38,167 nt of DNA, taken from positions 1 to 38,167 of the forward strand of contig CAYZWD010000001.1 in the NCBI GenBank assembly GCA_964482115.1, written 5' to 3'. This document shows positions 11,240 through 29,960 of the stretch, piece after piece (within the stretch, counting starts at the first letter, position 1; every line of letters begins with the position of its first letter). Made by a program: the position numbers and the translations under genes. The notes under the pieces were generated by a model, which worked only from the letters and a program-made list of their open reading frames with translations, had not been told where the DNA came from and ran no database searches. The stretch comes from an uncultured Acidiphilium sp. (GTDB lineage: Bacteria; Bacillota; Clostridia; Christensenellales; Borkfalkiaceae).

Positions 11240-11296
11240 GATAAAATGACCTCCATCTTTAAAATTTTCGGTTTTTTTGCCGATTTTTTTATTTTT

Positions 11297-11448
11297 AAGG
11301 TTTTTTGCGGGCGTTTTTGCGCCCCCAAAGGTTTTTTGCGGGCTTTTTGCGCCCCCAAAGGTTTTTTGCGGGCTTTTTGCGCCCCCAAAGGTTTTTTGCG
11401 GGCGTTTTTGCGCCCGCAAAGGTTTTTTGCGGGCGTTTTTGCGCCCGC
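11297..11448. repeat. Array of five tandem 30/31-bp units, each containing an inverted repeat. It lies between the promoter and the RBS of the 1785-aa gene.
   Basis: The units are 11297-11326, 11327-11356, 11357-11386, 11387-11417 and 11418-11448. Units 4 and 5 contain the perfect palindrome tttgcgggcg-tttttg-cgcccgcaaa (10-bp arms). Units 1-3 carry one or two substitutions or indels in the arms. Confidence 0.95.
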
Positions 11449-11728: not shown

Positions 11729-14700
11729 TTAGCCTATTACGGTTAAGCCGCCGGTTTCGTTGCCGATTTCGTCTATTTTTACGGTTACTTGCCTGCCGGA
11801 GGCGTAAGTTATTTGAATTTTTGCACCGCTCGTAAACGAAGTGCCGCTTATATAGCTTACGGTTACGCTTTCGCCAAGCACCGTGCGCGACGACGACGCG
11901 TAATAATCGTAGCCGCTATCCGTTCTTACTGCGCGCAAGATTAATTCGCCGTTGCCGGCAAAATCGGTTGAACGAGCCGCAAAATATTCTGAAAATTTAA
12001 CTATGCCCGTGCCTTCCAGGTGCAATAAGCTGTTTTTCAAGCGACCGTTAAACGTGTACACCTCGCCCGCGTCGGTAGTTGCCGTGGCGCTGAACTGCGT
12101 GCCGTCGGCTGAAATAACCGCGTTGCCGCTGTATTTTACGCCGTTCGAGGTAAGCGTTAAATAGCCGTATTCGTCTATTACGAGCGTGCTGTTGCCCGAG
12201 AACGACCTTTCGAACGTGCGAACCACGGCTAAGCCCTCGTATTTTTTATCGATTACCTGAATTCCGTAATATAACTTTTTGTTAACCCCGCCTACGTTTA
12301 CGGTTACGTAGAACTGATAAAATCCGGGGGTCGAAAACGCTATTGCCGAAGTGTATACCGCGGTTTTTTTCTGCTCTGCGGTAAGTTCGCCGTCTTCGGT
12401 TATTACGGTTATGGTGCTTAAAAAGTCGCTAAGAGAAGTGCCTTTTTTAACGGTGTACGAGCTGACTTTTACGATTGCGCCGTTTAAACTTACGCTTTCG
12501 AAGCCCTCTCCTACGGTTAAGCCGCTTTCAGCCGTTAATACCGTTAGCGTGTTGCCGTCCGCATTGAGCGCTACGTCGGCGCCCGCGCCGTACGTAAGCG
12601 ATTCGCCTAAGTAGCTTATAATCGCGCTAGCCCCGCGCTTTTCGTATTCGAAAAGAACTTTTTCGTAAGAAGTGAGGTTGTAATTGGCTACACCCAAACC
12701 GTAGCCGTTAAAAAATACGTATTTGCTTGCGGTTTTGTTTGTGTATAGCCCGAAAAATTCGTCTTTGACTATAAGCTCGAAAGTTTTCGCTTGTACGTTT
12801 AACGCAAACTTATAACTGAACGGATAAATTTCTACCTTTTCTTCGTCCGTATCCTTAATAGCCTTTACCGCCGCGCGTAAATCGGTAGTGTAAGAAACGC
12901 TTTGCGTGTTTTTGGCTTTGTTTACGGTTACTATTTTTGCGCCGTGAACGGTAAAAGTGCCCTCGGCTACGTTGCTGGAATTGTAACCTAAACCCGAAAG
13001 GTCGTACATAGAAAAACTAAATAACGACTCAGTGCCCACCGTTAGCGACGCGGTTGGCGTTTGCGCTAGGTTAAGCGTTGCCGACACGCCGTTTATCGCA
13101 CCCCTAAAGCTACCGGAATACGCTTGCTCGGATTCGGAATCCACAACGCTCGCCTTGCTTTCCGAAGAAATCCTGAACCCGTAAGTTTCGCCAAGCAACG
13201 TTACCGCGGACGTTACGCCCACGGTTTTTTCAAAGCCGTCGGCAAAAACCGCCTCTCCAAAGGTTATTTTATAATCGTAATCGCTTGAAGCATGCGAATA
13301 TAAATACGTTTTTAAACCGTACCACTTATAGCCGCCGTCGATTAGATTTTTTACCTTGAAAAGGTCTATAGAATAGTTGGCGGTGTCGCCCTCTAAAACG
13401 TGCTTGCCCGACTTTGCGGAATTAATTGCGAACGAATCGACTATTTGCCACTGCGCCGCGTTAAAATATACTATCGGACGGGTAACGTTGGTTAGTTTCA
13501 TGCGCAAATAGTTATCGTAAACCAAAACGGCAACGCCGTTATCGTAACTTAAAATAAAGTTAGAGCGCTCTAACGTAAGGCGGAAATCGCCCGCCCCAAC
13601 GCCGCTAACGTCGCTTGCCGATTTGCCGTTTACCGTAATAGCCATATCCGAACTAATCGTCATGTCGCCGATTTGTTGCGATTTTACGGCGTCGTCAACG
13701 ACTAAGCCCTCGTCGTCGTAAGTGGCGGAAGAACCTATGGTTAAAAGCGAAGTTTTATACGTGCCTATCATGCCGCCGTCTATAACCGTTACGTTCGCCG
13801 TTTTTTGCCGTTCTTTATATTCTAACGTTAAATCGTAAGAGCCGAGGGCGAACGGATTGAACGAGCCGCTTATCATATCCGGCGTTACGGCTATGCGCAT
13901 GCCTTCGTCCGTAACGGTGAAAAGCTTCGTTATATCGAGCGAGTAGCCCACCGTTATTACCTTGTTTTGCGCGGTTATTTCGGTGTTGCCTATCACTACG
14001 GCGTCGTATTCGATATATACGGGATCTGCCGTTACGCCGTTTACGTATACCGCCACCCTTACGGTGGTTTTGCCCGTTTCGTTTACGTTTACGCCGTTTT
14101 TTACCTCCGCATAACAAGCCGTGTAGCCGTTTGCGTTGGATCTATCCGCGGTTAGGGTTTGCGGTAAGCCGTTTAAAACAAGCTTTATGTTGCTTAACGC
14201 GTTGAACGACGCGCCTTTTTTAATTTCTACGCGGCTTTGCTCGGTTGTGAGCGTATATTCGTTTCGTACTACTTGATACGTTACTGTTTTTTCGGGATAA
14301 GTGAATTTTACACCCGAAAGACCAAAGCTTTTTTCGTTATAGCTGAGCTTTAACGTTACGGAATAACTGCCGACTATGTCGAAATTTACGTCGTCTACCC
14401 CGATTAAATAAGAAGATAGGTCGCTGAACTCAACGCCGTTAACGCTTACTTTAAAGTCGGCTGAAAAATCGTACGTCGCCTTAGGCGTGCCGCTCTTTAT
14501 TATTACTTCGCTAGAACGCGCGTAATCGATTATTACGCCGTTTTTTACCGTTACCGTTGCGGTTGCCACGCGCCCTTCGTAATTGAGCGTTACCGTATAA
14601 TCGCCGCCAACCGAATAATCGACCTCTCCGCTGAGCATATCGTAAGTAACCGACACGGGCTTACCGTCACGCGTTATTTCAAACAGCGAAGTGGGTGCTA

Positions 14701-15796
14701 CGTTTGCGCCGTTAATAAACGCTTCCGCGTTGCGCGCGGTTATTATAACGTTATCTTCGATTATTTTAACGCGTAAGTTCGTAACCTCGCCGCCGACGGT
14801 TAGCTTTACTAGGCAAACGTCGCCTAGCTTTGCGTTCGTTACAGCCGAATCGTCTATCATGTCGGCGGTGACTTCTGCCGCCGCACCGTTTTTGTATAGA
14901 TAAAAATCGCTAACGTAATCGCGCGATTTTGCCTCTGCCTCGGGTAAAAGCAAGCAAGAATACGCAGCATGCGCGATATATACGTCCGCCGCGCTTACGG
15001 TAACGTTTAACGTAAGCGAAACGCCGCCCCTTGCAAAAGTTAACGCGTATTCGCCCGCCTCGGCTTTGACCTCGCCGCCGAGCATCGAGTTGGTTACCGT
15101 GAAAGGCTCGCCCTCGCGCGAGGCGGAAAATAACGAGCCGAAATCGTAATCCGCTACTTGCGAAACGTGAATTTTTACGCTATCTTGCGCAAGCGCCGCT
15201 TTGTAAACCGCCTCCGTTACGTTTATTCTTACCGTGGCGCGCTTGCCCTTATACGTGCAAGAAATTACGTACGTGCCGCGTTGGTTTTTTAGCCCGGTTA
15301 GGTCTATATCTTTATTTTCTAACTCTACGGTTTCGCCGCTTAACGAAACGCGGAACAGCGAAGCGAAGTTATAATCGGCAAGTTCGTCGTCTTTTAAATC
15401 GACTTCGTCTGAAAGCGCCGTTACCGAAACGGGTGCGGAAGAGTTTACGTGCACGGTTATTTCAGCCGTTTGGTCTTTTACGGTGCAATAAACTTTATAA
15501 GTACCTACCTCCGCTTTTACCGCGGAAGAATTTATATATTCCGCCTTGGTCGCATATCTGTTACCGTCACCGTATACGGTGAAAAATACGGTGTAGTCGT
15601 AACCCACGGCGTTTTCTTCAACCAGCGTTACGTCCGACGAGTTAACTGCTATTTCTATCATTTTGCAGTTTTCGACGCTAGGTAAGTCGGGTGACGGAGC
15701 GGGGTTTTCGGCGTTACTCTTTCCGCACGCCGCCGCCAAAGCCGAAAACGCAAGCGTTATTACCAGCAATATCGTAATTGCCCATCTTTTTTTCAT
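11729..15796 (-). CDS. Giant surface lipoprotein (1355 aa). It has about 8 tandem Ig-like repeats (DUF5011-like pattern) followed by about 670 aa of beta-rich sequence of unknown function.
   Basis: I place the start at the ATG that is the complement of 15794-15796 (MKKRWAITILLVITLAFSALAAACGKS, lipobox), with GGAGG 8 nt upstream. The ORF track start at 15811 is a TTG lying upstream of that RBS. Repeat ends recur every 75-85 aa: GTYKVYCTVKDQTAEITVHV, GTYVISCTYKGKRATVRINV, GEYALTFARGGVSLTLNVTV, GDYTVTLNYEGRVATATVTV and GSYDLTLEYKERQKTANVTV. Confidence 0.9.
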   Translation of the reverse strand: MKKRWAITILLVITLAFSALAAACGKSNAENPAPSPDLPSVENCKMIEIAVNSSDVTLVEENAVGYDYTVFFTVYGDGNRYATKAEYINSSAVKAEVGTYKVYCTVKDQTAEITVHVNSSAPVSVTALSDEVDLKDDELADYNFASLFRVSLSGETVELENKDIDLTGLKNQRGTYVISCTYKGKRATVRINVTEAVYKAALAQDSVKIHVSQVADYDFGSLFSASREGEPFTVTNSMLGGEVKAEAGEYALTFARGGVSLTLNVTVSAADVYIAHAAYSCLLLPEAEAKSRDYVSDFYLYKNGAAAEVTADMIDDSAVTNAKLGDVCLVKLTVGGEVTNLRVKIIEDNVIITARNAEAFINGANVAPTSLFEITRDGKPVSVTYDMLSGEVDYSVGGDYTVTLNYEGRVATATVTVKNGVIIDYARSSEVIIKSGTPKATYDFSADFKVSVNGVEFSDLSSYLIGVDDVNFDIVGSYSVTLKLSYNEKSFGLSGVKFTYPEKTVTYQVVRNEYTLTTEQSRVEIKKGASFNALSNIKLVLNGLPQTLTADRSNANGYTACYAEVKNGVNVNETGKTTVRVAVYVNGVTADPVYIEYDAVVIGNTEITAQNKVITVGYSLDITKLFTVTDEGMRIAVTPDMISGSFNPFALGSYDLTLEYKERQKTANVTVIDGGMIGTYKTSLLTIGSSATYDDEGLVVDDAVKSQQIGDMTISSDMAITVNGKSASDVSGVGAGDFRLTLERSNFILSYDNGVAVLVYDNYLRMKLTNVTRPIVYFNAAQWQIVDSFAINSAKSGKHVLEGDTANYSIDLFKVKNLIDGGYKWYGLKTYLYSHASSDYDYKITFGEAVFADGFEKTVGVTSAVTLLGETYGFRISSESKASVVDSESEQAYSGSFRGAINGVSATLNLAQTPTASLTVGTESLFSFSMYDLSGLGYNSSNVAEGTFTVHGAKIVTVNKAKNTQSVSYTTDLRAAVKAIKDTDEEKVEIYPFSYKFALNVQAKTFELIVKDEFFGLYTNKTASKYVFFNGYGLGVANYNLTSYEKVLFEYEKRGASAIISYLGESLTYGAGADVALNADGNTLTVLTAESGLTVGEGFESVSLNGAIVKVSSYTVKKGTSLSDFLSTITVITEDGELTAEQKKTAVYTSAIAFSTPGFYQFYVTVNVGGVNKKLYYGIQVIDKKYEGLAVVRTFERSFSGNSTLVIDEYGYLTLTSNGVKYSGNAVISADGTQFSATATTDAGEVYTFNGRLKNSLLHLEGTGIVKFSEYFAARSTDFAGNGELILRAVRTDSGYDYYASSSRTVLGESVTVSYISGTSFTSGAKIQITYASGRQVTVKIDEIGNETGGLTVIG

Positions 15797-15941
15797 ATTA
15801 AATTCCTCCAAAGCCCGCGGCTTTTTGCCGCTTAAGCCTTTGCGCGCCTACAAGCGAATTTTTATAGCTTTACGCTTTGTTCTTTTCGCTTAATTTTTTA
15901 AGCTTTATACGCGCGGGGTTATAGCAACTTAAAAGGCGAGC

Positions 15942-16046: not shown

Positions 16047-18872
16047 TTAGCCGTTCAAGGTCCAGTTGTAAGCGGTGCTTTCAAGCTCTATCCAGAAAGT
16101 TCTGGTCATGTTGCTTTCAACCCTTATTCTTAAACCTAGCTCTTCGCTTACGTAGCAAGTGTATTGGCTGCTGCCGCGCTTACCGGTGTTAGCGCTGTCT
16201 AACGCAAAGCCGCATTTGCCTAGTTCGCTGGTTAAAAGCGCTATAATGTCTGCGTAGAACGGGGTGATTTTTAAGTTCTCGTCGCACAAATCGTAAGAAA
16301 CGGTGAACGAAAGACCTTCTAAATAAGTGGTTGCGCCGCTAGAATTTACGCCGTTTTCAACATATTCGTGCCAAGGCCCGTTAAGTCCGTCGCGGAAGGC
16401 TTTGCTTAATGCGGCGGGAATCTTGTTGAAGTTTTGGTTTTGAGCAATCGTCGTGCCGAAAATCTTTTCGACGGCGGCGTCGCCGCGTAAATATTCCATA
16501 GTGCCGATAGTAGAGTAATCGGCGTAATATTTTATCGAAGCAAAGTCTGCCCAAGTGGAGGGAACTACCCTTGCTACGTAATTATCCCAAATGCCTTCGG
16601 GCAATTCGGTAGAGTTAACGTTCGAATAAGTAGTGGTGTAATAACCGCCGTACATACCCGCTATATCGTAAGCGTAACCTACGGACCTTAATACGCCGTC
16701 GCTATCGACAGAGATAAGGAATGCGTTATCCGCGTTCATAGAAGATACCGCGTCAGACGCGTAATCCGCAAGAGTCATAGCGTAAGCTACTTCTCTAGTG
16801 ATTGCGGAATCTTTCAAAGCAAAGGTGTAAAGATATTTATCCGTGCCCTTAATAGACTCCATTTTTTGGAAATCGAAAACGTAAGGCGAAACTTTGAAGT
16901 CGGGAAGTAAATCCGCAAACTTACCGTCCTTTCTGCGGGTTCCGGTTAACGCCCTGTTATCGTATTTGTATTCAAATGTTTCGTAAGTGTTGTCTGCGTT
17001 TTGTTTATATCCGTACGCTTCGGTGTGATAGGTGTAATCGTCCAGCGTGTAAGAGTATTGCCCCGTTTCGTTGATGAGCGCACCCTCTTGGGTAACTACC
17101 CCGCGAACGCCTACCGTGCCGCTGGTAGAAAGATAGTTGCGGATCGAAATTTCGCTAGTATCGTTACGCTTGCCGTCGTCTTCGGCAGCGGCGGTAACGG
17201 AATAGCTAGAAACGCCGCTCATATCGTAATCGTTAGGATCGAGCGAGGGAGCGTATCTCTGGCTTTCAACCATACTAAAGGTATAGCTTTCAACCCGACC
17301 ACTCATGTTGGAGAGCGCGGTGCTTAAAGCGGCGAAATAAGTCTTAACGCCTTCGCCTACGGTTTCGGAATAAGGAGCGGGGCTAGCGACTACGGTGCTG
17401 CCGACGTCTTCAAAAGTAAAGGTACAAACGGTGTTTTGATAGCCTATTACCTCTTCGCCGCCTTCTTCGTCTACCTCGTAAAGGTTAATTTCTGCGGTGG
17501 TTGCCACGATTTGATCGATAACCTTGCCGCCCTTGCCGTCCGATTTTAAGAAAATACGGAATTCGTCGAATTGATCGCCCGAACCTAAAATCGGGGTAAA
17601 CGACCAAGCGATATAAGCCATTAACCATTCGTCTTCACTCGGAGTGTATTCGTAGGTTTGGAAAATCCAATCGTATTCGATCGTTCCGGGTTCGATATCG
17701 TAAGTGTAAATATCGTTTTCTTCTTCAACGAACTTGCCTAAAACCAAGCCGTCTAAGTGGTTCCAGAAGTGCCTGCCGTCGTGCGAGTTCTCGTCGGAAT
17801 CGTACCAAACGATGGGGTTGCTATTCGAATCTTTAAGCTGTTTTGCTACGCTTTCGTTATCCTTATTAACGTAAAGCTCGTTTACGTAATAGTTGCCGTT
17901 GCCGTCCGAATTGCCTTTAGCGTAAGTATTTGCGTTAACGGTGGGGTTTTTAACGCCCGCAACGCTCGATTCGCCGTACCAACGGTCGCCGTCCATTTTA
18001 ACTACGGTATTATATATCGTATCGCGGCTGTTGCCGTCCGACGAGCTGTTATATTTAACTACGTCTTTAATAACGGCGTTTACGGTTATTTTTTGGTTTG
18101 CAATATTATTGAGCATGTCTTGGGTAAGATCGCCGACGCTGCCCTCTTGAAGTTTGTTTTTAACGGTGATTTCGATTTCTTCAGACAAAGTGCTTAATGC
18201 GTTAGAGGTTACCGTTACCGTTACGGGCACGCCCGCTTTGGGAAGCTCCTTGTTTTCGTCTGCAACGACTAAAACGTTGTTAGCCGAATCGTATCTAACC
18301 AAACCTTCGTAACCCTCGGGTTCTTCGAAACTAACGCTGAAAGACGTATCGTCGTAAGGCAAGTTAGAAATGCTAACGTCTAAACGGATAGCGTTTTCCG
18401 TGCCGGGGCGAAGTACGGTTTTAGCGCTTTCTGAAGTTACGCTTTTAGCCGCAACGGTTAATACGGGTCTGGTTGCCGCACTGTTTTTTAATACCTTTAT
18501 GTTTTTGGTTTTGCTGATAGACGTATCGCGAACCAATTCGACGGTAATAGCAACGTCGGTATCAACCTCAACGCGGGCGGCGTCCGCCACCTTTAAGAAG
18601 AAGTTAACGCTGTCTGCGGAGGTTTCTGAAATTATCTCTACCAAAGAGGGGTTGCCCGAAACGATGTTATAAGCCGAATCGTCCGAGACTGCTACTACGA
18701 CGGGAAGTTTTTCGCCGTTTTTGATGGTGCTTGCAAAACTAACGCTGATAGTGGGCTTGTCGTTTGAGCCGCTGCCGTCGCCATTGTTTTTACAAGCGAC
18801 GAACGAAAATGCGGTTAACAGCGCAACTACCAATGCAGTTAAGCGTTTTGCGGTTAATGCAAATTTTTTCAT
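16047..18872 (-). CDS. Surface lipoprotein (941 aa). It has two N-terminal Ig-like modules plus a domain of about 700 aa of unknown function, and is a paralogue of the 819-aa gene upstream.
   Basis: MKKFALTAKRLTALVVALLTAFSFVACKNNGDGSGS carries the lipobox FVAC. GGAG lies 8 nt upstream of the ATG. Collinear motif matches to the 819-aa protein are listed in the findings. Confidence 0.9.
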   Translation of the reverse strand: MKKFALTAKRLTALVVALLTAFSFVACKNNGDGSGSNDKPTISVSFASTIKNGEKLPVVVAVSDDSAYNIVSGNPSLVEIISETSADSVNFFLKVADAARVEVDTDVAITVELVRDTSISKTKNIKVLKNSAATRPVLTVAAKSVTSESAKTVLRPGTENAIRLDVSISNLPYDDTSFSVSFEEPEGYEGLVRYDSANNVLVVADENKELPKAGVPVTVTVTSNALSTLSEEIEITVKNKLQEGSVGDLTQDMLNNIANQKITVNAVIKDVVKYNSSSDGNSRDTIYNTVVKMDGDRWYGESSVAGVKNPTVNANTYAKGNSDGNGNYYVNELYVNKDNESVAKQLKDSNSNPIVWYDSDENSHDGRHFWNHLDGLVLGKFVEEENDIYTYDIEPGTIEYDWIFQTYEYTPSEDEWLMAYIAWSFTPILGSGDQFDEFRIFLKSDGKGGKVIDQIVATTAEINLYEVDEEGGEEVIGYQNTVCTFTFEDVGSTVVASPAPYSETVGEGVKTYFAALSTALSNMSGRVESYTFSMVESQRYAPSLDPNDYDMSGVSSYSVTAAAEDDGKRNDTSEISIRNYLSTSGTVGVRGVVTQEGALINETGQYSYTLDDYTYHTEAYGYKQNADNTYETFEYKYDNRALTGTRRKDGKFADLLPDFKVSPYVFDFQKMESIKGTDKYLYTFALKDSAITREVAYAMTLADYASDAVSSMNADNAFLISVDSDGVLRSVGYAYDIAGMYGGYYTTTYSNVNSTELPEGIWDNYVARVVPSTWADFASIKYYADYSTIGTMEYLRGDAAVEKIFGTTIAQNQNFNKIPAALSKAFRDGLNGPWHEYVENGVNSSGATTYLEGLSFTVSYDLCDENLKITPFYADIIALLTSELGKCGFALDSANTGKRGSSQYTCYVSEELGLRIRVESNMTRTFWIELESTAYNWTLNG

Positions 18873-18924: not shown

Positions 18925-21384
18925 TTACTCTGCCCAAAGGTACACGAATAAATCTAAGCCTTCGTCGGCGGGCTTAATAACCAAGTTGCAGCCCGCTTTT
19001 CTGTATTCTCCGCTACCGTCCGCAGCTTTTGCGAACCCTTTAGCCTTTAAAAACGCGTCTATCTTGTCTAGCGAAGAATTAATCGTATAGTCCATATCCA
19101 GCGGAACGTCGTAATAAAGCTTAACGGTGCTTATAGCTTTATAAGAGTTGCCTACCGGTTTTTGATATATTTGAGGCATGCCTAAGCCGAAAGTATCGCC
19201 CAAAGCGTCCGCGTCGCTGAAGAAAGGTATTTCTTCGGCGGTTATGCCGCTAAGCGCGGGTATGCCGTTTTTACCGAAGAAATAGCTAGCAAAATAATCG
19301 CCCGCGGGAATTAAAGTTTCGGTTTCGTATTCGGCAATGATGGCCACGTCGTTCCATTTAGTGGGTAGCGGCTTAGAATCAAACGCGTTTATGCGCGCTA
19401 AGTCTTTATCCGCAACGGTTGCCGTGTTAAAATCGGAATAAGTAATATCTACCACGCCGTAAAAACCTTGGCTATCTATGCTGTAATAAAAGCCCGAACC
19501 TACTATATAATAATCGCCGTTAACGGCTTGAACGTCTACGTAAGTGGCGAACTCGGTAGTTCCGCTAACGCCTATAGCCGCAAATAAGCCGTAAAGGTTT
19601 ATATCGTTGCCTACGCCGCTATAAAACTCGGTTGCCACGGTAGACATTGCGTCGTCCGCGATAAAGCGGGTAAGCTCGGCTTCTTCGTCGTAATAACAGC
19701 CGCGGTTGAATATTTCCGCACAGAAATCGAAATCGGGAGTGGCGTCGCTAACGCTGCCGCGATAAGAACGCGTAGGCGCGTAAGTATAATCGCCGTCCGC
19801 AGTTTCGGTATAAAAGAAGGTGTTGTAAACGCCGAGATAATCGTCGCTGTTTCTGTACCCGTAAGAACCTTCGTCCGTAAAGATTTCGCTACTTGCGTAA
19901 GAAGAAGTGTACGGGCGGAAGTAACATACGTCTTGGGTTACTACTTCTTGATAACCGCTAACCGTGGTAGAGGCAAGCCCTTGCATTGCCGAAACGTTGA
20001 TAAGCTCGGTTTTGTAAGAGGTTAACGCTTGCATGTTGGCTATTGCGGTTTGAAGTTTGCGGTATTCCGCTTTGGTGGGCGCGTCTTCGTAATCGTCGAT
20101 TTTAACGTAGCCTCGCATTACGGGAACTTCGGCAGAATCGGACGCGTCTAGCGCGACGTAAAGCCTTTGTTTTGCCATATAGCCCGCTACTATAGAATAA
20201 TCTTTGCCCGAAGCGGCGCATATACCTATAATTTCGCCGTCGTCGATTATAAGCTCGAACGTGCCGTTATCGTCTACGAAAAAGTCGTAAGGATCGCACG
20301 AGGCGATCATGTTTTTAACGAGCTCGCTGCCCGCGTATTTGTATTGCCAACGCCAAGATTGTTCGTTGAACGTAAAGTCTGCCGCGGTTAAACCTTTAAA
20401 GCAGTTATAATAACCCGCTTCCGACCAAAGAACCTTTTCTCCGTTTGCGGTTTTTAAGGGATAACGGCTTAAACGGTTGTTAAAGTCTAACGTGGTTTCG
20501 CACGCGTAACCTTGGTCGTCGCACTCGAAAAAGATTTGTTGGCTTATACCTACGCTTGCGTTTTCATACTCGGCATACCACTTGCCCGTTTCCATAGCCG
20601 TGCGCATGGTTACCGTGTTAGACTGAACCAGCGTTTCGCGTACGCCGCCCGAGCCTAGGTCGGTTTCGGTGTAAATATCTATCATTATAAAGCCGTCGAA
20701 CGAGATGATTTCGTTTTCGCCGCAAAGTGCTTGAACCATTTCGTCGGTAAGCTCGGTTTTAGCAACCGAAGTTACGGCTTTGGTGGCTTTTACCGTGGGA
20801 TCGGCTTCGGAAACGGCAGTTACTTTTAAAATTTTATCGCCGGTAACGTCGCTACCCGTAAACTCTATTGAATTAGCGGTTTTAGCGCCCTCTATAGCCG
20901 CGCCGTCGTTTTCAACCTCGAACTTAATCTTTTTATCGGCTTCGGTTTGCGCGCCGCTTATTTGTGCGGTGAACTTAACCGTTTGCCCCGCTTTTACGGT
21001 GGCGGTTTGCTTGCCGTCTACCGTGCAGTCGAGCGAAATTTCGAGTTTTGCGGGCGTTTGAACGTTTGCCGTAAACGTAACCCGTTGCGACGCGGGCGAA
21101 ACCGAATAACCTTCCGCAAACGCTTTTACGTATATAACGCTATCTACCGTGGTATCGGCTAAGTTATAAGAAGTTTGCTCGGTTTGGTTTTGCGCCTCGT
21201 TTATAAATACGTAGTAGCCTTGCGCATTTTCAACCGCGCCCCACGTTATTAACCCGTCGTCGCTGACGGCAACGTTTTGGGGGGCGGAAAGCGCCTTAGG
21301 CTCGGTAGCAATTAAATCGCATGCCGCCGCGCTTACGCACAAGCAAGCCACTAGCAACAAACATATAAGTTTTTTTAGTTTCAT
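18925..21384 (-). CDS. Surface lipoprotein (819 aa). It has an Fn3-like module, an Ig-like module and a domain of about 600 aa of unknown function, and is a paralogue of the 941-aa gene.
   Basis: MKLKKLICLLLVACLCVSAAACDL is a signal peptide with a lipobox. APQNVAVSDDGLITWGAVENAQGYYVF is an Fn3-type motif. The GGAG RBS directly abuts the stop codon of the preceding gene (RBS 21392-21395, stop 21396-21398). Confidence 0.9.
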   Translation of the reverse strand: MKLKKLICLLLVACLCVSAAACDLIATEPKALSAPQNVAVSDDGLITWGAVENAQGYYVFINEAQNQTEQTSYNLADTTVDSVIYVKAFAEGYSVSPASQRVTFTANVQTPAKLEISLDCTVDGKQTATVKAGQTVKFTAQISGAQTEADKKIKFEVENDGAAIEGAKTANSIEFTGSDVTGDKILKVTAVSEADPTVKATKAVTSVAKTELTDEMVQALCGENEIISFDGFIMIDIYTETDLGSGGVRETLVQSNTVTMRTAMETGKWYAEYENASVGISQQIFFECDDQGYACETTLDFNNRLSRYPLKTANGEKVLWSEAGYYNCFKGLTAADFTFNEQSWRWQYKYAGSELVKNMIASCDPYDFFVDDNGTFELIIDDGEIIGICAASGKDYSIVAGYMAKQRLYVALDASDSAEVPVMRGYVKIDDYEDAPTKAEYRKLQTAIANMQALTSYKTELINVSAMQGLASTTVSGYQEVVTQDVCYFRPYTSSYASSEIFTDEGSYGYRNSDDYLGVYNTFFYTETADGDYTYAPTRSYRGSVSDATPDFDFCAEIFNRGCYYDEEAELTRFIADDAMSTVATEFYSGVGNDINLYGLFAAIGVSGTTEFATYVDVQAVNGDYYIVGSGFYYSIDSQGFYGVVDITYSDFNTATVADKDLARINAFDSKPLPTKWNDVAIIAEYETETLIPAGDYFASYFFGKNGIPALSGITAEEIPFFSDADALGDTFGLGMPQIYQKPVGNSYKAISTVKLYYDVPLDMDYTINSSLDKIDAFLKAKGFAKAADGSGEYRKAGCNLVIKPADEGLDLFVYLWAE

Positions 21385-21395
21385 TTGCGCTCTCC

Positions 21396-21974
21396 TTAAT
21401 ATCCGTAGGTTATTTTAACGACAGCCTCGCACATTTTTCCGGTTTTTTCGTCCACGATAAAATTGAACGAATATTGCGCGGTGCTAACGCGAACGCCATC
21501 GAAATTAACGCTGAACGAAACGCCGCCGAAACAGCCTAGTTCACCGATAAAATCTCCTACGTTATCATCGGAAACCTTGCCGCTGAGCACACCGCTAGAA
21601 CAATCGAAACTGTTAAAAAGCTTTTCTTTTAAATTAAAAACTACTAAATCCGCGCGGTCGATAGTTTCGGTTTTCGTATCCGTAACCGTAGTCCTTTCGA
21701 ACGTGGTGGGATCTATCGCGGTGGTTTGGGTTATTACCGTCGCTTCGTTGCCGCTTTCGAACGCTTGCGTTCTTTTAACGCTTTTTATAACGTAAGAACC
21801 GTCTTTATACTCTATTTCCGTAACGACGGTTTTTGCCGCCCTCACGGACGACGAGTACGCCTTTTTAGCGTCGGTAACGGTGTTTACGCTATTTGAACCG
21901 CCCGTTCCGCAACCCGCAAGCAACGTTGCCGCAACGACTAGCGCCGCGATTAAAGTTAACAATGTTTTTTTCAT
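21396..21974 (-). CDS. Small lipoprotein (192 aa) of unknown function, placed directly between the subtilase gene and the 819-aa lipoprotein gene.
   Basis: MKKTLLTLIAALVVAATLLAGCGTGGSNS carries the classical lipobox LLAGC. A weak AAGGG RBS lies 8 nt upstream. The mature part appears all-beta. Confidence 0.85.
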   Translation of the reverse strand: MKKTLLTLIAALVVAATLLAGCGTGGSNSVNTVTDAKKAYSSSVRAAKTVVTEIEYKDGSYVIKSVKRTQAFESGNEATVITQTTAIDPTTFERTTVTDTKTETIDRADLVVFNLKEKLFNSFDCSSGVLSGKVSDDNVGDFIGELGCFGGVSFSVNFDGVRVSTAQYSFNFIVDEKTGKMCEAVVKITYGY

Positions 21975-21994
21975 ATATTTTACCCTTTATTGCG

Positions 21995-22016
21995 CCCCGC
22001 CGCGTTTGCGGCGGGG
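21995..22016 (-). promoter_or_regulatory. GC-rich stem-loop between the subtilase stop codon and the start of the small lipoprotein gene.
   Basis: ccccgccgc - gttt - gcggcgggg forms a perfect 9-bp all-GC stem. No U-tract follows on either strand, so it is unlikely to be a full terminator. Confidence 0.55.
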
Positions 22017-22028
22017 GCTAATCGTTAA

Positions 22029-25000
22029 TTAGTCGCCTAATATCGAACTTTCGATATCGTTTATCGCGCCGTTTACCGAATTCATGTATTCGCCGAACGC
22101 CGCAACCAACGCGTTGTATTTATCGAGGTTTAACAGCGTGCGTTGCGAACCTTTAAGCTCGTCTATACGCGCGGTTAAATCGCAAAGCTTATCTATCAAG
22201 CCTAAATCGAATTCGCTAGGCAATGCGGTAAGCTCGGCGTCTAACGCCTTGATTTTTTCGCTTGCCTGTGCGATTTTAAGCTTTCTTACAGCCTCTTTGG
22301 CTTGCTCGGTAGCTAAGCGGTAACTTGCCCATTCTTGAGCGGTAAACGCACCTCCGAAGAATTTTTGCGCGTCGGAATCCTTAACCGCGGAATACGCCGC
22401 AACCGCTTTGGTAACCAAAGCCTCGTCGCTAAGCTCTATTTCACGCGAGTTCAATATCGCGATTATTTGCTTGGCGTAGGTAACGAAGTCGGACATGTCG
22501 CCGTCCATTGCCAAATACGATTTATCCGTGCGGGTGAATCTGCCGAAGTACGCTTTGTATACCACCGCGTCGTACCCTTCGGTCTTTTTGTTTACCGTAT
22601 CGGGTAAATACATGGGTATAGGCGCGTTTTTGCCAACTAAATCTACGAAGTTATAGTAGCAAAGTTCCAAGTTGAACAAGTTGAGGTATGCGTGGAGCTG
22701 ACCGTACGCGTATTCGTTATCTTTATTAAGGGTTACGGACGCGGTATAGTCGTAATCGCTCTCTAACGCGGGGGCAGCGTAAGACCTAAAGTATACGCCC
22801 CAACCTTCGTCGTATTTATCCTCTTTGAGTAGCCCCGTATAGCCGTAGAACGCGTAATTACCTATTTGCTTTAACGATTCGGGAAGAACTATTTTTACTA
22901 CGTTTTTGTTGGCGTTGCCCGCGTAGTATTCTACGCGAACCGTGCCCTCGGCAACGTAAAGTTCGGTAACCGTTTGTCCGCTTAACGTTTTGAGGTTTGC
23001 GGGAACGGATTTAAGCTGTAAATCGCCGTTTGCGGTTATATCGTAAAGCATACCGCTTTCGATCGCCACGAACGAGTTGATAAGTTTACTATCTACCTTG
23101 CCGCCGTTTTCGGTGTAAACGAAACGCTCTAACGCGTTGCAACCCGCGAATACGGACTTTCCTATTATTTGCAACGAAGAAGGTATTGCGAATTCTTTAA
23201 GGTTTTTATTGCCGCCGAGCGCGGTGCAATCGAACGCGCTGTCGCCCAAAACGATAAGCTTAGGCGCGTTGAACGACTTAACGGCAGTATCTTTAAACGC
23301 GTATGCCGAAACAAAAAGCAGTTCGGGCGCGTAAATATCGCACGAAAGTGCCTCGTTGTTGGCAAAAGCCGCCTCGCCGATATAAACGGCGCCGGTTAAA
23401 TCTACCGTTTTTAAAGTGCGCGGCGAGTCGCTTGCAATAGCTTGAGCAAACGCATAGTCGCCTATTTCTTCAACGTGAGAAAGGTTTACGTTTACCAAAG
23501 ACGAGCAGCTGCCGAACATATAGTCGCCAACGGTGGTTACGCTTTGCGGAAGCGTTACGTTTACTAAGTTAGCGCAACCGAAGAATACCGAGTTGCCGCC
23601 GAAGTGCATGGTTTTTGCGAGGCTTACAGCGGTGCTTTGCGCGCCCGCTTCGAAAGTAACTCCTTCCGGAATGGTTATTTCGGTAAGACCTAAGCAGTAC
23701 ATAAACGCTCCGTCGCCTATATATTCTAATGTAGACGGAAGTTTTACTTTTTGGAAGGAGGGCGAAACGCCCGCCGTGGTAAGCTTACCGAACGAGTAAT
23801 CGCCGATGGCAACGGTGGTCGCGCTGCCGCTGATTTCGTTGCCGTCCTCGTCGTATTCGGCAAAGCTTAAATTCATTAGCGAAGAACATTCCGCAAAAGC
23901 AGAGTTTTCAACGGTTATAACGCCCGAAAGGTTAACGCCGGAAACGGAACGGCAGTTATAGAACGCTTGAAGCGGTATAACTTCGGTTACGTTTTTGAAG
24001 TTGAGCGTGCCTTTTAACAATACGTCGTTGGCAAAGCATGCGTCGCCTAAAACTACGCCGCCCTTTTCGCCGTCGGCAACCTCGGGTAAAACGAGTTCGG
24101 TAAGCGCGCGCGCGTTTTGGAACGCGCCCATACCTATAACGGTATTTTTGCCTAAAACAACCTTTTTAACGCGGCTTTCGTAGAACGCGCCCTCTCCCAC
24201 GGTTGCGCCCGCGCCGATATCGGCTTGGGTTACGGCTGAACCCGCAAACGCGTATTCGCCTATCGTTGAAACTTTATTTAAGTTTTCAACCGTTAAATCG
24301 GTGTAAATAACTTTTTCGGCGCCGGTAGCGGGATCTATTTGAACGCTTTGACCGACGTATGCGAACGCGAACTCGCCTATTTGCGCTCCGCCCGCGGGTA
24401 AAACCACCCTTTCGAGCTTGCCGCTGTTGGCAAACGCGTAATCGCCTATTATAAAGCCGGTTTTGTTAATCGTTACCGAAGTTAGGTTGCTCCCCGCGAA
24501 CGCCGAAGCGCCTATCGAGTTATAAGAAGAATCGGCGCCGATAACGAGGTCCGTTTGTTTTGAGTTGGCGAACGCGAAGATTATTTCGCCGCCGTCTTTG
24601 CTTACCAAGAACGCGTCGCCCGCTTCGGGTGCGGCGTAGTGTGCGTTTTCGGGATCGATAACGAAAGTATCGACCGCGGTAGATTCGAATACCGTGCCGC
24701 CGATTGCGGTTATTGCGGTGTTTTTATTGAACTTAACCGTTTTTAGCGAACCGCACATATAGAAACAGTACGCGCCTAGCGAAACTTCGCAGTCCGGCAG
24801 TTCGAACGCGGTTAACGCAGAGTCGTTATAGAAAGCTTGATCGCCTATGCTACTAACTTTCGCGTCGGAATCTAAAACGAACGAAGTAAGCGCAGAACAA
24901 TCGCTGAACGCGCCCGTAGATATTTTTTCGAGCGAGTTTTTAAGCGTTACACTCTCTAACGAGGCGCATTTTGCAAAGCAATATTCGGGGATTTCTTTGG

Positions 25001-28000
25001 TTTCGTAAAGCGTTATGCTCTTTAAGCCCGACCGCGCGAACATTGCGTAAGAAAGCTTAGTGTGTTCGTTGGTTATAACTTCGGTAAGAGCGGTACAATC
25101 TTTAAACGCCTCGCGCCCGGTGTTGCGCAACGTTTCTAAGTTGACGGATTTAAGCGAAACGCAGCCGTCGAACGCGCGAACGCCTATCGAAGTTATTTTT
25201 TCAAGATTGATAACTTCTAGCTTTTTGCACGCCGCGAACGCTTGCGCGCCGATAACCAGCACGTCGCCGCCCAGCTCGCCCGATGCGCTTACGCTTTGAA
25301 CGCCGCCGTTTATTACGCGGGTGCGGATATCTTTGAGTTTAACGTCGCCGTAGAACGAATATTCGCGAATATATTTTAAGGTAGTGGGAAGAACCACGCT
25401 TTCGAGCTTAACGCAATTATAGAACGCGTATTTTTGAATTTCTTCAACGCCCTCGGGTATAATCACGCGGGTTACGAACGAGTTGCCGTCCGGAACTTTA
25501 TTCGCGTCGTAATCGTCGTCGTCTAAAATAACGTCTCTATCGGTGGTGTATAAGCAGAACGCGTAAGAACCGATATACAAAATACCCTCGTCGTCGGGAA
25601 TTTCTACCTCGCCGCCGATGCCTTTATAGGCTATAAGCGTTCTGTTTTCTATTACGAACGGATTTTTAACTTCTATACCTACCGTTGCCGATATGTAAGA
25701 AATAGCGCCCGTTTGCTTGTTTTTGGCTTTCAGCGTTACCGTTACGTAGCCCTCTGCCAAAGCGCGAACGTTACCCTTTGCGTCGACCGAAGCTACCGTG
25801 GGATCGGTAGTTTCGTAATACAATTCGTAATTAGAAGCGCAATGCCAAGGCGTAACCTCGTAATAAAGCGTAACGCGCTCGCCGGGGTACATTTTTATAG
25901 TGCCGTTAGAAGCGGAAATAAAGTTGACCGAACCGGTTGAACCTATCTCGCTGGTTTGCGCTGCCAAAGCGTGTGCGTAAGCCGTTTGGAAATGCGAAAA
26001 ACGAATTTCTTCAAGCCCGCCGTCGTTGTCGAACGGAGTTACTCCGACTTGCGCGGAATCGCTCGGGCGCGAACCCTTTTTAACGTTGATTATAACCACG
26101 GCTTGCAATCCGTCCATTCTCTCGCGAACGGTTACGGTTGCGCGCCCCGAAGTTAAGGTTTTAACCACACCTTTATCGACCTCTATAACGTTCTCGTTAG
26201 AACTTATCCAAGTGAGGTGGGATAAATAGTCTTCGTTTTCTCTGCTTTCGCCGATGGTTTCGTCTGCCGTGTAAAGATATTTTTTGAGGTCTATAAGCTC
26301 GTTTTCGTACGCGGTGAAAATAATTAAGTCTTCACCGTTGTTTTCGCCGTTTTTGGTGAACTTGAATTCGCCCGCCGTACCGGGAAGCTGACATACGAAA
26401 ATGTTAGTGTTCAACGCGTAGTCGTCGATAGAGAAACAAATCGCGTTGGGTATTAACGAATCGTTATAAATATCCTCTAAATAGTCGGTTATTTCAAAGG
26501 TGAGCGTGCAATCTTGCCCCTTTTGCCCGTTTACGGGAATGGGAACGTCGGTTAAGAACGTGTAGGTTGAGCTCGAAGTGAAAATAACCGGGTTAACGGA
26601 CATCGCGTAGTGATTATCGTATACGGTGAGCGTTATATAATAACGGTATTTTTTCTCCGTTTCGTCGTATTCGCGGGTGTATTCCGCGTTTTTGAGGATA
26701 GGCGCTTCGTTATCCATAGTGAATTCGAAGCTGAACGAATTGTTTTTGTTGGTATATAATCCGCCGGGATTTTCCGCGTCGTCTAAATTATAATCGAGCA
26801 AGCCCGTCATCGAGAACACGTATACGTGGTTGTTTATAAACCCTTGTTGCAACGAATAAAGCCTGAGCGATTCGTAATAAGGCATCGGTGCGCCCGAGGG
26901 TGCGTACGATTTGCTCGCGTTGTGGTCTATAAAGCTCCAAACCACTTCTCCCGTAACTTTGTCCGTTACGGTGTAATACATTTCCTTAGCGCCGCGCAGT
27001 AAGCCCGCGCCGATAGTGCTTATGCCGTCTATCGCGCCTAACGTGTCCGAAACGGAGGCGTGCTCTTCGGTCGCGGGGATAGCGTCGTAAGCGCCGGTAT
27101 CGTAAAGATACGTACCGAGCGGAATCATGTAGTTATAGAAATACGAACCGTAAGGCGTGGTTGCGTAATAATCCGCCTTAATTTTGTCGTCGTAATCGAT
27201 AGCGTCGTCGTGTGCGGTAGATTCAACCTCATAATAGGTTTTATCGAACATGGGCGCTTCGGTCCAATCGCCGTAGAAAGCAAGGAAAGGCGCGTTTAAG
27301 TCGACTTCGCCGTTGCCTATCGCCTTGAACTTTAAAAAGCCCTCTACGTACATGCCGTTTTCAAAATGCGAATCTATATACTTTTTATCCGCAGCGTCGA
27401 GCGTGTAAGTAACTTCTACCTTAACGGACTGCCCCGCCGGAACGGTTATTCTGCCGCTCGTAACTTCGGTAGCGGTAGTGCCGTTTACCGTTTTAACGAC
27501 GGTTGCCCCGCCGAGCATATACGGCGTTTCGGCTACGTGCTTATCGTCCGAAGTGGAAACGCTTTCGGTCATCGCTACGAGCGAACAATCGTAAGAAACG
27601 GCAGACGAAGATATGTTAACCACGTTCACGGTCATGGTGTAAACGCCGGTGCGGTTTTTATCGTCGCCGAGTTCGATTTTGCTGCGGTCTAAGCCGTCTA
27701 CCGTGATATAAGCTTTGGTTTTAACGGTGTTTGCAAAATTTGCAAGCCCCGCGCCTTGTTTACGCGGCGAATAGGGGTTGTTTTCTTCGTTTTTAACGAT
27801 ATCCGCGGTGGACATCATTAGTTGGTTAGCAAGGTTTTTAATATCCTTGTCGCTCAAATTAAGCGATTGCTTGTAGTTATCCTTTATGTATTGACGGATT
27901 AAAACCACTATACCGCAAAGGTTGGGCGTTGCCATCGACGTACCGGACATCTGGTCGTAGCGGTATTGAACATTTCCGTTATCGTCGGTATAGCTGCCGG

Positions 28001-29960: not shown

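Follow-up and report, generated by a model that had tools for sequence, protein, structure and literature searches.

The window, the whole 38,167-nucleotide stretch analysed, encodes a 2643-aa subtilase that carries a long array of LRR_5 repeats next to the genes of an Opp-type importer. We read the enzyme as a peptide-foraging cell-envelope proteinase (CEP) from the same subtilase branch as lactocepin and C5a peptidase; it would feed Opp and, in this clade, would be either released or held by lipoproteins (probability about 0.55). The catalytic domain, the gene neighbourhood and the C-termini of a large family of relatives carry this reading, and the features on which it is based are collected in Table 1.

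Table 1 Features of the protease locus (positions in the window).
Feature	Position	Strand	Evidence
OppA, oversized, SBP_bac_5, lipoprotein-like	35338-38085	-	Pfam; NCBIfam Opp4A weak
OppB	33821-35191	-
OppC	32731-33828	-
OppD	31540-32709	-
OppF	30326-31540	-
Opp-type ABC importer, whole	30326-38085	-	Pfam; order kept upstream of protease in 8/9 contexts
Small ORF, 86 aa, basic N-terminus and C-terminal TM helix, between oppF and protease	30091-30351	-	Translation, tblastn, called genes
Protease gene, 2643-aa S8-PA-Fn3-Big_2-LRR_5-helical-tail proteinase	22029-29960	-	ORF list, translation, Pfam, full-length homologs at 47-100% identity
Signal peptide, aa 1-33, MRIK and 20-aa hydrophobic core	29862-29960	-	Hydropathy scan, N-terminal census
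Probable I9-type prodomain, aa ~55-200	29361-29798	-	Weak Inhibitor_I9 match, PF05922 in relative P0007, conservation
Peptidase_S8 catalytic domain, aa 227-738	27747-29282	-	Pfam E 8e-47, invariant residues, PDB matches
D236 codon	29253-29255	-
H320 codon	29001-29003	-
N420 codon	28701-28703	-
S675 codon	27936-27938	-
PA (protease-associated) domain within catalytic domain, aa 535-601	28158-28358	-	Pfam PF02225, E 2.9e-15
fn3_5 domain, aa 763-884, first of CEP 'A-region'	27309-27674	-	Pfam PF06280, E 4.8e-11; PDB CEP alignments reach aa ~918-928
Middle region without Pfam name, aa 885-1290	26091-27308	-	Conservation profile, Pfam at E ≤ 10
Big_2 domain core, aa 1375-1415	25716-25838	-	Pfam PF02368, E 1.3e-8
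BspA-type LRR_5 array, aa ~1445-2385, ~40 units of 22-23 aa	22806-25628	-	Pfam LRR_5, unit spacing, PDB LRR_5 proteins
C-terminal helical domain, aa ~2487-2640, 8 helices, last one 28 aa	22041-22502	-	AF2 pLDDT 91.9, pTM 0.83
GC-rich hairpin just 3' of stop codon, no U-tract	21992-22018	-	RNA fold -25.1 kcal/mol, z -3.55; alignment with L001-L003
192-aa lipoprotein, lipobox LLAGC, 54 nt downstream of protease	21396-21974	-	Translation; synteny 8/9 contexts
819-aa lipoprotein, Fn3/Ig and LolA/LppX-like half-barrel domains	18925-21384	-	Translation, AF2, Foldseek; synteny 9/9
941-aa lipoprotein, paralog of 819-aa lipoprotein	16047-18872	-	hhalign; synteny 9/9
1360-aa Big_3 lipoprotein	11729-15811	-	Pfam Big_3, translation; synteny 9/9, 1141-1680 aa

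Domain layout and protease group

A subtilase of family S8 is expected to present Asp, His and Ser in that order together with an oxyanion Asn. This arrangement was found in the ATG-initiated ORF, with a PF00082 match of 160.4 bits against a cutoff of 21.8, and none of the four residues (D236, H320, N420 and S675) varies among 19 diverse relatives. The ORF, its translation and Pfam bear out the first-pass annotation of a 2643-aa subtilase with a PA insert, and the enzyme is apparently catalytically competent.

Members of the CEP / C5a-peptidase group are expected to carry the PA domain inside S8 and fn3_5 after it, and both are indeed placed in this way. The best PDB sequence matches, over aa 224-928, are C5a peptidase 7edd (6e-57), SpyCEP 5xya, 1xf1 and 'cell envelope proteinase A' (E 6e-57 to 1e-52), and the grouping of the N-terminal part with lactocepin and C5a peptidase, proposed before any database search, stands for the N-terminal ~900 aa. 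The closest solved relatives are the streptococcal C5a peptidase and SpyCEP, which cleave host factors, and not the nutritional lactocepins, a counterpoint to a foraging role. The top NCBIfam match is SGO_0316_fam, although the score against NF040553, the SGO_0316/SGO_0317 LPXTG-anchored serine peptidase, stays below cutoff (245.4 vs 1400 bits) and covers aa 150-914 only. ScpA/ScpB, SpyCEP and S. gordonii SGO_0316/0317 have the S8-PA-Fn3 core in common with the window protease, but they are LPXTG-anchored and cut specific host factors, whereas the window protease is without LPXTG, carries an LRR array and diverges from them in its C-terminal half.

On the N-terminal side of the catalytic domain, SPase I cleavage is possible after ASA and before Q, a site assigned without a predictor. 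The Inhibitor_I9 match that follows is weak (aa 143-186, E 0.02 in Pfam at E ≤ 10); PF05922 is on record for relative P0007, and identity of the prodomain region among relatives is 0.42-0.56. On the C-terminal side, the middle region is strongly conserved, with 0.85 identity at aa 901-950. Two Big_2-like domains had been proposed; one was recovered (aa 1375-1415, E 1e-8), and the second, at aa 1247-1278, stayed sub-threshold (E 0.28, Pfam at E ≤ 10). The BspA-type LRR estimate of ~935 aa was close to the ~940 aa found at aa 1445-2385 with a unit spacing of ~22-23 aa. The LRR_5 model (PF13306) matches in 8 stretches with 383.7 bits (cutoff 27.7, E 2e-116), the array matches 4fs7, 4gt6, PcpA 4cp6 and TpLRR 6mlx in the PDB, and it is the least conserved part of the protein (0.3-0.6 identity in the conservation profile). 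BspA-type LRR_5 surface proteins are adhesins or protein-binding modules. BspA, TpLRR, PcpA and GBS HupY/LrrG belong to the same repeat family but are stand-alone proteins of 200-1000 aa, whereas here the array is fused downstream of a protease. The match to the HupY/LrrG adhesin equivalog NF047961 remains far below cutoff (118.7 vs 1250 bits), with the repeats alone in common.

The tail had been described as helical and FIVAR-like. The AF2 model, with 8 helices, agrees with the first part of this description, and the second is not supported, nor is another known fold: neither FIVAR nor any other Pfam family was found on aa 2280-2643 even at E ≤ 10, and Foldseek gave no PDB match to the model below E 0.1. 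The query of a tail search against 1.84 billion representatives included the last LRR unit, and the resulting list was swamped by LRR_5 proteins; the informative matches are the ~25 that span the whole tail, each of which is either a short fragment or the C-terminus of a protein of 2000-2700 aa. The helical tail resembles the H-domain of CEPs from lactic acid bacteria in its position and number of helices.

The layout as a whole is close to that of the lactocepins (PrtP, PrtS, PrtB and PrtH), which likewise have a pre-pro-S8 part split by PA, Fn3-type and more beta domains, a helical H-type end and a pairing with Opp. It differs from them in the LRR_5 array, which is absent from the CEP domain list of PMC10535647, in the type of anchor found in the family (a simple TM helix at the C-terminus, followed by K/R and in many members combined with an N-terminal lipobox, instead of LPXTG/SlpA), and in the gene cluster, where opp is physically adjacent and no PrtM-like maturase (PPIase) gene is present by Pfam, which found no rotamase domain among neighbours some of which have no Pfam match.

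Gene neighbourhood and function

CEPs of lactic acid bacteria pair functionally with Opp, and variants of their H-domain and anchor exist (PMC10535647). In the window the genes of both are also neighbours. Directly upstream of the protease, oppABCDF and the small TM ORF were found in eight of nine contexts (the window, L001-L004 and L007-L009). The small ORF is itself conserved: tblastn recovers it in L001-L003, and in L004 and L007-L009 it is a called gene (79-87 aa). One lineage (L005/L006) has the lipoprotein linkage but no adjacent Opp; thus, the coupling of protease and Opp is frequent but not obligatory.

Downstream, the protease and the 192-, 819- and 941-aa lipoprotein genes follow one another at distances of just 11-54 nt. 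Promoter and terminator scans gave site counts no higher than in shuffled sequence, and the operon structure is therefore drawn from spacing alone. Among the nine contexts, the ~190-aa lipoprotein is absent from L004. The 819- and 941-aa lipoproteins align with each other over 757 columns (hhalign prob 100, E 1.9e-39). No Pfam, NCBIfam or PDB profile matched either of them, and fold search alone gave the LolA/LppX-like assignment (for the 819-aa protein, AF2 pLDDT 81.2; Foldseek LolA 2w7q and LppX 2byo, prob 1.0 with modest TM-scores). The 1360-aa Big_3 lipoprotein is listed with a TTG start; a few codons further on there is an MKKRW... start.

The sequences show the domain composition, the intact active site, the lack of an anchor in the window protein against its presence in relatives, and the conserved neighbourhood; the nutritional role, the LRR ligand, the mode of retention and the processing of the prodomain we infer. 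The protease would be exported by Sec, and its I9-like prodomain would, as subtilase biology suggests, be removed autocatalytically. The enzyme would then cleave extracellular proteins into oligopeptides, and the adjacent oversized OppA together with OppBCDF would take these up. The ~40-unit LRR_5 solenoid, placed roughly like the B-domain in CEPs of lactic acid bacteria, may serve as a protein-binding arm for substrates or partner proteins, and the ~155-aa helical end would match the CEP H-domain stalk in position.

The LRR array may target the host or a substrate. The enzyme could instead be a protease and adhesin directed at the host: its LRR_5 arm would bind a host protein (mucin, immunoglobulin, complement or chemokine), S8 would cleave it, and peptide uptake would be incidental. 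We consider this rather unlikely, since opp lies directly upstream of the protease in eight of nine contexts, in lineages down to 48% identity, which points to nutrition, and since the HupY and SGO_0316 model scores are far under their cutoffs. Nevertheless, the best solved homologs, C5a peptidase and SpyCEP, work in just this way, the LRR region partly matches HupY/LrrG and the pneumococcal adhesin PcpA, and the family comes from gut-associated MAGs, including one from a Hadza human gut sample. The low conservation of the LRR region is also compatible with adaptation to variable ligands. A connection with Tomasiella immunophila, an IgA-degrading gut bacterium that is Gram-negative and requires MurNAc, was considered and dropped.

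Anchors in the family and their loss in the window clade

The first-pass annotation recognised no cell-wall or membrane anchor, which holds for the window protein, for which an HMM search for a cryptic anchor was empty. The sole hydrophobic segment in a hydropathy scan is N-terminal (aa 4-25). The last residues are ...NDIESSILGD, and 17-aa hydropathy peaks at 0.89 within the final 110 aa, so that there is no terminal TM helix. No LPXTG with a hydrophobic tail was found, the lone LPxT[GAS] string (LPGTA, aa 1192) being internal; no sorting-signal family (PF00746, PF03217 or NCBIfam) matched the whole protein, its last 100 or its last 220 aa; and there is no lipobox, with no Cys in aa 1-176. A hidden anchor was thus rejected by hydropathy scan, LPXTG-type and lipobox regexes and NCBIfam.

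The same annotation asked how rare the architecture is. The S8+PA+LRR_5 combination is common, forming a large conserved family whose ~4,600 sequences, every one full length, fall into at least 120 clusters at 90% identity; its members are 47-100% identical to the window protease, 2450-2730 aa long and identical in their Pfam sets. Their sources are gut MAGs of uncultured Christensenellales/Borkfalkiaceae-like bacteria, and their sole annotation is 'leucine-rich repeat protein'. As to taxon labels, a relative at 74% identity carries 'Candidatus Borkfalkiaceae bacterium' and L002 'Christensenellaceae bacterium', and a homolog of the 819-aa lipoprotein is likewise labelled Borkfalkiaceae. Neither this family nor S8 + LRR_5 fusions nor Borkfalkiaceae proteases turned up in the literature, which also yielded no expression, localisation or substrate data for any family member.

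A C-terminal census showed a hydrophobic helix followed by a K/R tail in 112 of the 120 relatives listed, 102 of them above a strict hydropathy threshold and 10 more with a weaker helix followed by K/R. The eight without a helix are P0001-P0005 (the window clade), P0072, P0096 and P0112. By a loose regex, ~86 of the 120 relatives listed have an N-terminal lipobox-like Cys. When the last 70 and 220 aa of up to nine TM-bearing homologs were searched with NCBIfam, no curated sorting signal emerged, only sub-threshold noise (Loki-CTERM at 15 bits, and LAETG at 12 bits on one protein), and the C-terminus is therefore read as a plain stop-transfer helix. The lack of an LPXTG or S-layer anchor, first noted as a departure from the norm, is not unusual, as most relatives are anchored by a TM helix and anchor-less CEPs are known. 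Some lactocepin-type CEPs, described in lactobacilli, end without any attachment domain (PMC10535647), so that LPXTG/SlpA attachment is not universal in CEPs; for some CEPs of lactic acid bacteria, release into the medium is described (PMC8623714).

The sequences indicate that the family is ancestrally membrane-anchored and that the window clade (73-100% identity) has lost both TM helix and lipobox. The ancestral enzyme would have been tethered to the cytoplasmic membrane by its stop-transfer helix and K/R tail, with the zymogen mostly lipidated at the N-terminus too. The TM helix would have been lost independently several times, in the window clade, P0072, P0096 and P0112. Because the window clade lost both C-terminal helix and N-terminal lipid, its mature enzyme would be either released or held non-covalently by the putatively co-transcribed 192-, 819-, 941- and 1360-aa lipoproteins.

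Retention by neighbouring lipoproteins is suggested by analogy with dentilisin (Treponema denticola prcB-prcA-prtP), in which an acylated propeptide is cut off and PrtP is then held on the surface by PrcA and PrcB; a ~23-kDa partner lipoprotein interacts with this protease, to which a role in nutrient acquisition is ascribed (PMC8167434). Both systems combine a subtilisin-family protease with co-encoded lipoproteins, and the 192-aa lipoprotein is similar in size to the ~23-kDa partner. However, dentilisin belongs to another subtilase branch in a diderm spirochete and has no LRR array, and its partner lipoproteins show no sequence similarity to those of the window in PDB profile searches, Pfam and NCBIfam; the analogy is functional alone. 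For retention, the synteny of protease and lipoproteins in all nine contexts lends indirect support.

A tentative and rather doubtful extension of the foraging model is that these genes encode an undescribed Christensenellales surface 'peptide-harvesting machine', made up of the protease, the ~190-aa, LolA/LppX-like and Big_3 lipoproteins, the small TM protein, OppA and OppBCDF. The LRR array and tail would dock on the lipoproteins, and products would be channelled to the Opp binding protein. With such docking the TM anchor would be dispensable, which would account for its repeated independent loss.

Even where Opp is absent, the protease and the three large lipoproteins stay together as the invariant core of the cluster, and one could suppose that the protease matures these neighbours (819, 941 and 1360 aa) in a surface complex, like PrtP and PrcA, with the LRR arm as docking platform. 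Dentilisin provides a precedent, the tight intergenic gaps agree with it, and the independent TM losses suggest another retention mechanism. But broad-specificity proteinases typically have such a PA-plus-Fn3 CEP scaffold, and the 192-aa lipoprotein is missing in L004; we regard such self-directed maturation as quite improbable and retain peptide foraging as the preferred reading.

The anchor loss in the window clade is real, judging from two relatives: L001 and L002 are truncated at the same point and both have the conserved hairpin, followed by the lipo192 RBS and start, where TM-bearing L003 has its TM-coding segment. The hairpin stem is retained in L001 and L002 despite different sequences, and the hairpin could uncouple the expression of protease and lipoproteins. 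The absent anchor could alternatively reflect a 3' end that was truncated or wrongly assembled, or a sequencing frameshift, as the metagenome-type window and the TM helix of most relatives might suggest. This is very nearly excluded by five separate 90%-identity clusters (Logan, NCBI and ENA; 73-100% identity) that stop at one point, by the shared stop, hairpin and lipo192 RBS/start of L001 and L002, and by the 54 nt between protease and lipo192, in which no hidden exon fits.

Implications for Christensenellales

Christensenellales and Borkfalkiaceae are widespread gut bacteria, mostly uncultured, and their physiology is known almost solely from genomes. The finding is a variant of a known CEP system and not a new kind of system, in a family that is itself common but unstudied. 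The series from lipobox with TM, to TM alone, to neither is a natural comparison for the sortase-free retention of large exo-enzymes on monoderm surfaces. The family provides these bacteria with a conserved locus for extracellular proteolysis and peptide uptake, physically linked to opp. Under the host-targeting reading, host proteins would be the target of a very abundant commensal protease that carries its own ligand-binding arm. Under the nutritional reading, these organisms would be protein and peptide foragers, and the locus would be a marker for the trait.

Domain architecture and family of the protease

The predicted domains of the 2643-aa subtilase are listed in the table with the surrounding genes. 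Its active site is complete (Asp236, His320, Ser675 and the oxyanion Asn420) and is unchanged in 19/19 diverse relatives. By sequence, the closest solved structures to aa 224-928 are C5a peptidase (7edd, 6e-57), SpyCEP and 'cell envelope proteinase A', in agreement with the lactocepin/C5a-peptidase-like N-terminal part recognized in the first-pass annotation. The repeat region, with units spaced 22-23 residues from ~aa 1445 to 2385, is matched by LRR_5 crystal structures. An Inhibitor_I9-like prodomain (aa 143-186) gives only a sub-threshold Pfam match, as does the second of two Big_2 domains previously proposed (aa 1247-1278), leaving one that is significant. The 'FIVAR-like' label given to the tail falls below significance, and Pfam has no match to the tail.

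An AF2 model of the tail (aa 2330-2643; alignment of 46 sequences) is confident (pLDDT 91.9, pTM 0.83) and shows the last LRR turns, a cap and then eight helices (aa ~2487-2640), the final one of 28 residues, which in relatives runs into a TM segment. Foldseek comparison of the model with the PDB gave nothing better than E 0.13, and whole-tail matches in a library of 1.84 billion proteins were confined to the C-termini of family-sized proteins or fragments. In position and helix count, the tail is like the H-domain of cell-envelope proteinases (CEPs) of lactic acid bacteria, which comprises 82-220 aa and 3-9 helices ahead of a wall spacer and anchor (PMC10535647).

Features of the protease and its locus
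Feature	Position	Strand	Basis or remark
SBP_bac_5 protein, oversized, 915 aa	35338-38085	-	first in gene order
OppB, OppC, OppD, OppF	after SBP_bac_5 protein	-	Pfam
Small ORF, 86 aa	30091-30351	-	translation; between oppF and protease
Protease ORF, 2643 aa	22029..29960	-	ORF list and translation; uninterrupted, ATG start
Peptidase_S8	aa 227-738		Pfam, E 8e-47; split by PA insert
PA domain	aa 535-601		Pfam; within Peptidase_S8
fn3_5	aa 763-884		Pfam
Big_2	aa 1375-1415		Pfam; sole significant one
LRR_5, 8 stretches			Pfam, 383.7 bits, very strong
Stable GC-rich hairpin, no U-tract	21992-22018	-	-25.1 kcal/mol, z -3.55 (window)
Four lipobox-signal-peptide proteins, 192, 819, 941 and 1360 aa	after protease	-	translation
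819-aa lipoprotein	18925-21384	-	paralog of 941-aa
941-aa lipoprotein	16047-18872	-	paralog of 819-aa

Among 5.8 billion protein clusters searched, at least 120 (90% identity) span the entire query. These are 47-100% identical, 2450-2730 aa long, carry the same Pfam set and hold ~4,600 member sequences (summed over the member column of the match table). Names are few ('MAG: leucine-rich repeat protein' from Clostridia, Clostridiales or Bacilli bacteria); a 74%-identical relative, MDY4187264.1, is assigned to 'Candidatus Borkfalkiaceae bacterium' / 'Christensenellaceae bacterium'. Conservation is fairly even over the protein, with peaks in the catalytic core (0.7-0.88) and at aa 901-950 (0.85) and lower values in the LRR array (0.3-0.6) and tail (0.35-0.57). 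This even conservation, together with the number of full-length clusters sharing one Pfam set, indicates that the S8-PA-Fn3-LRR_5-tail architecture is common, not rare as had been thought possible, and evolves as a single unit. A literature search found no paper characterizing the S8 + LRR_5 architecture.

Gene neighborhood and proposed role

Genes from 38085 down to 5882 all lie on the minus strand, with only 11-54 nt separating the protease, 192-, 819- and 941-aa genes. A scan of a genome collection yielded three MAG loci (L001-L003): one labelled Christensenellaceae, one Hadza gut Clostridia MAG and one labelled 'Acidiphilium'. The order opp (importer genes), small ORF, protease, lipoproteins is found in L001-L003 and in L004 (48% identity), L007 (57%), L008 (52%) and L009 (50%). 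In L005/L006 (52%) the lipoproteins are kept and opp is not upstream, and the ~190-aa gene is missing from L004, which leaves the protease and three large lipoproteins as the invariant core. The record of L001 (CAYVKZ010000002.1, a 76 kb contig) is titled 'uncultured Acidiphilium sp.', i.e. an alphaproteobacterium. It carries a 79%-identical protease copy and the full opp-protease-lipoprotein synteny of Borkfalkiaceae/Christensenellaceae MAGs, and its taxonomic label is almost certainly mistaken.

At 915 aa (877-949 aa in relatives), the substrate-binding protein encoded here is longer than a typical OppA (about 540 aa). It resembles SBP_bac_5 in two separate parts, aa ~59-176 (weakly, by NCBIfam Opp4A) and aa 495-805 (by Pfam), which implies a putative ~300-aa insertion or added domain. 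The 86-aa ORF, which overlaps oppF at the end of that gene, encodes a protein whose N-terminal half is basic and which carries a TM helix at its C-terminus (...AIILAAYARYLPAAGIIACCFLAAALLLKLWLS); it has no family match. In L001-L004 and L007-L009 a counterpart of 79-87 aa likewise separates oppF from the protease. The 819- and 941-aa lipoproteins are paralogs (hhalign probability 100, E 1.9e-39) for which no sequence relatives were found in Pfam, NCBIfam or the PDB; only 13 clusters of homologs were found, from Borkfalkiaceae-type MAGs and all labelled 'hypothetical'. As modelled by AF2 (pLDDT 81.2), the 819-aa protein has Fn3/Ig domains followed by beta half-barrels, which match LolA (2w7q) and LppX (2byo) with Foldseek probability 1.0 and modest TM-scores (TMt 0.38-0.50). 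The 1360-aa Big_3 lipoprotein (11729-15811, minus strand) and a 1845-aa protein (5882-11419, minus strand; start listed as TTG) that carries Listeria-Bacteroides (Flg_new) repeats extend the same-strand run of giant surface proteins. In L004 and L009, smaller proteins of the Flg_new type are encoded upstream of oppA, so the locus may loosely include a Flg_new protein.

The best-supported reading is that the protease is a CEP whose oligopeptide products are taken up by the adjacent Opp importer, as in the lactococcal PrtP/Opp pairing. The enzyme would cut proteins into oligopeptides for import, the LRR arm would be a platform for binding proteins, and the helical domain would act as a stalk. 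Similarity to C5a peptidase and SpyCEP and the adhesin-type repeats would also suit a host-directed protease and adhesin, but this leaves unexplained the opp linkage (opp adjoins the protease in 8/9 contexts), and we consider it unlikely. Somewhat less probable still is that the main substrates are the enzyme's own lipoprotein neighbors, as would fit the invariant core.

Anchor loss and surface retention

In a hydropathy scan, the N-terminal signal sequence was the only segment of the window protein of membrane-helix length. An LPXTG-plus-tail, a lipobox and a C-terminal helix were looked for and not found, and NCBIfam gave no sorting domain. The reported fusion of S8, PA and LRR_5 domains without an anchor is thus confirmed, and no cryptic anchor emerged. 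The absence is not shared by the family: among 120 members (last 110 residues), 102 have a strongly hydrophobic 17-aa stretch followed by K/R-rich residues (e.g. ...LLGLLSVAIKKRLF), and 10 more have a weaker helix and K/R-type tail. Only 8/120 lack the helix, namely the window clade (clusters P0001-P0005, 73-100% identity) and P0072, P0096 and P0112. Since the relatives' C-termini match no curated sorting-signal model and no conserved motif precedes the helix, it is read as a probable plain stop-transfer helix and not as a signal for sortase or exosortase. A lipobox-like Cys ends the signal peptide in about 86/120 members; neither the window clade nor its relatives at 49-59% identity have one.

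The protease ends at the same position in L001 and L002 as in the window, and an assembly artefact behind the missing anchor is highly improbable given the same end in five independent clusters and three loci. Anchor loss in the window clade is real: the family is ancestrally membrane-anchored, and this lineage shed its anchor. P0072, P0096 and P0112 are scattered outside that clade and retain the lipobox without the TM helix; P0112 keeps a short basic terminus (...NKFNKGGK). These cases suggest repeated, independent losses, and either some further way of holding the enzyme besides the helix or a tolerance of its release.

Between the protease stop codon and the ribosome-binding site of the 192-aa lipoprotein gene lies the hairpin, at the site where TM-bearing L003 encodes its helix. 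It follows the stop in the window, L001 and L002, with the stem maintained through different sequences in the latter two. L003 lacks it, and there the TM-coding segment extends to the next gene. The next gene's ribosome-binding site and start lie at most 54 nt after the protease stop. The hairpin may be a partial terminator or an mRNA-stabilizing element setting the protease-to-lipoprotein ratio.

Autocatalytic prodomain removal is established for subtilases with I9 prodomains generally. By analogy it would occur in the window protein, so that once matured the enzyme would not be retained by a signal sequence or lipid at its N-terminus. Most relatives would rely on the C-terminal helix instead; in the window clade, with no covalent or integral tether, the mature protein of roughly 265 kDa would either be released or stay attached by non-covalent contacts. 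A direct precedent for the latter is dentilisin, a subtilisin-family protease encoded together with two lipoproteins; after cleavage of its acylated propeptide, the mature enzyme is kept on the surface via partner lipoproteins, one of 23 kDa (PMC8167434). Both CEPs without any attachment domain (PMC10535647) and released CEPs (PMC8623714) are known.

The initial interpretation holds in part: the CEP-type protease without an anchor stands, but most of its relatives are anchored and its architecture is common. The window protein is a CEP with an LRR_5 arm, from a family with TM/lipobox anchoring and a conserved opp-protease-lipoprotein locus, whose anchor was secondarily lost in one clade. No new category is needed for it; all of its elements have known counterparts, and secondary loss accounts for the missing anchor in an ordinary way. 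The family is abundant and uncharacterized, and it can serve as a neat natural experiment in how enzymes are kept at the surface.
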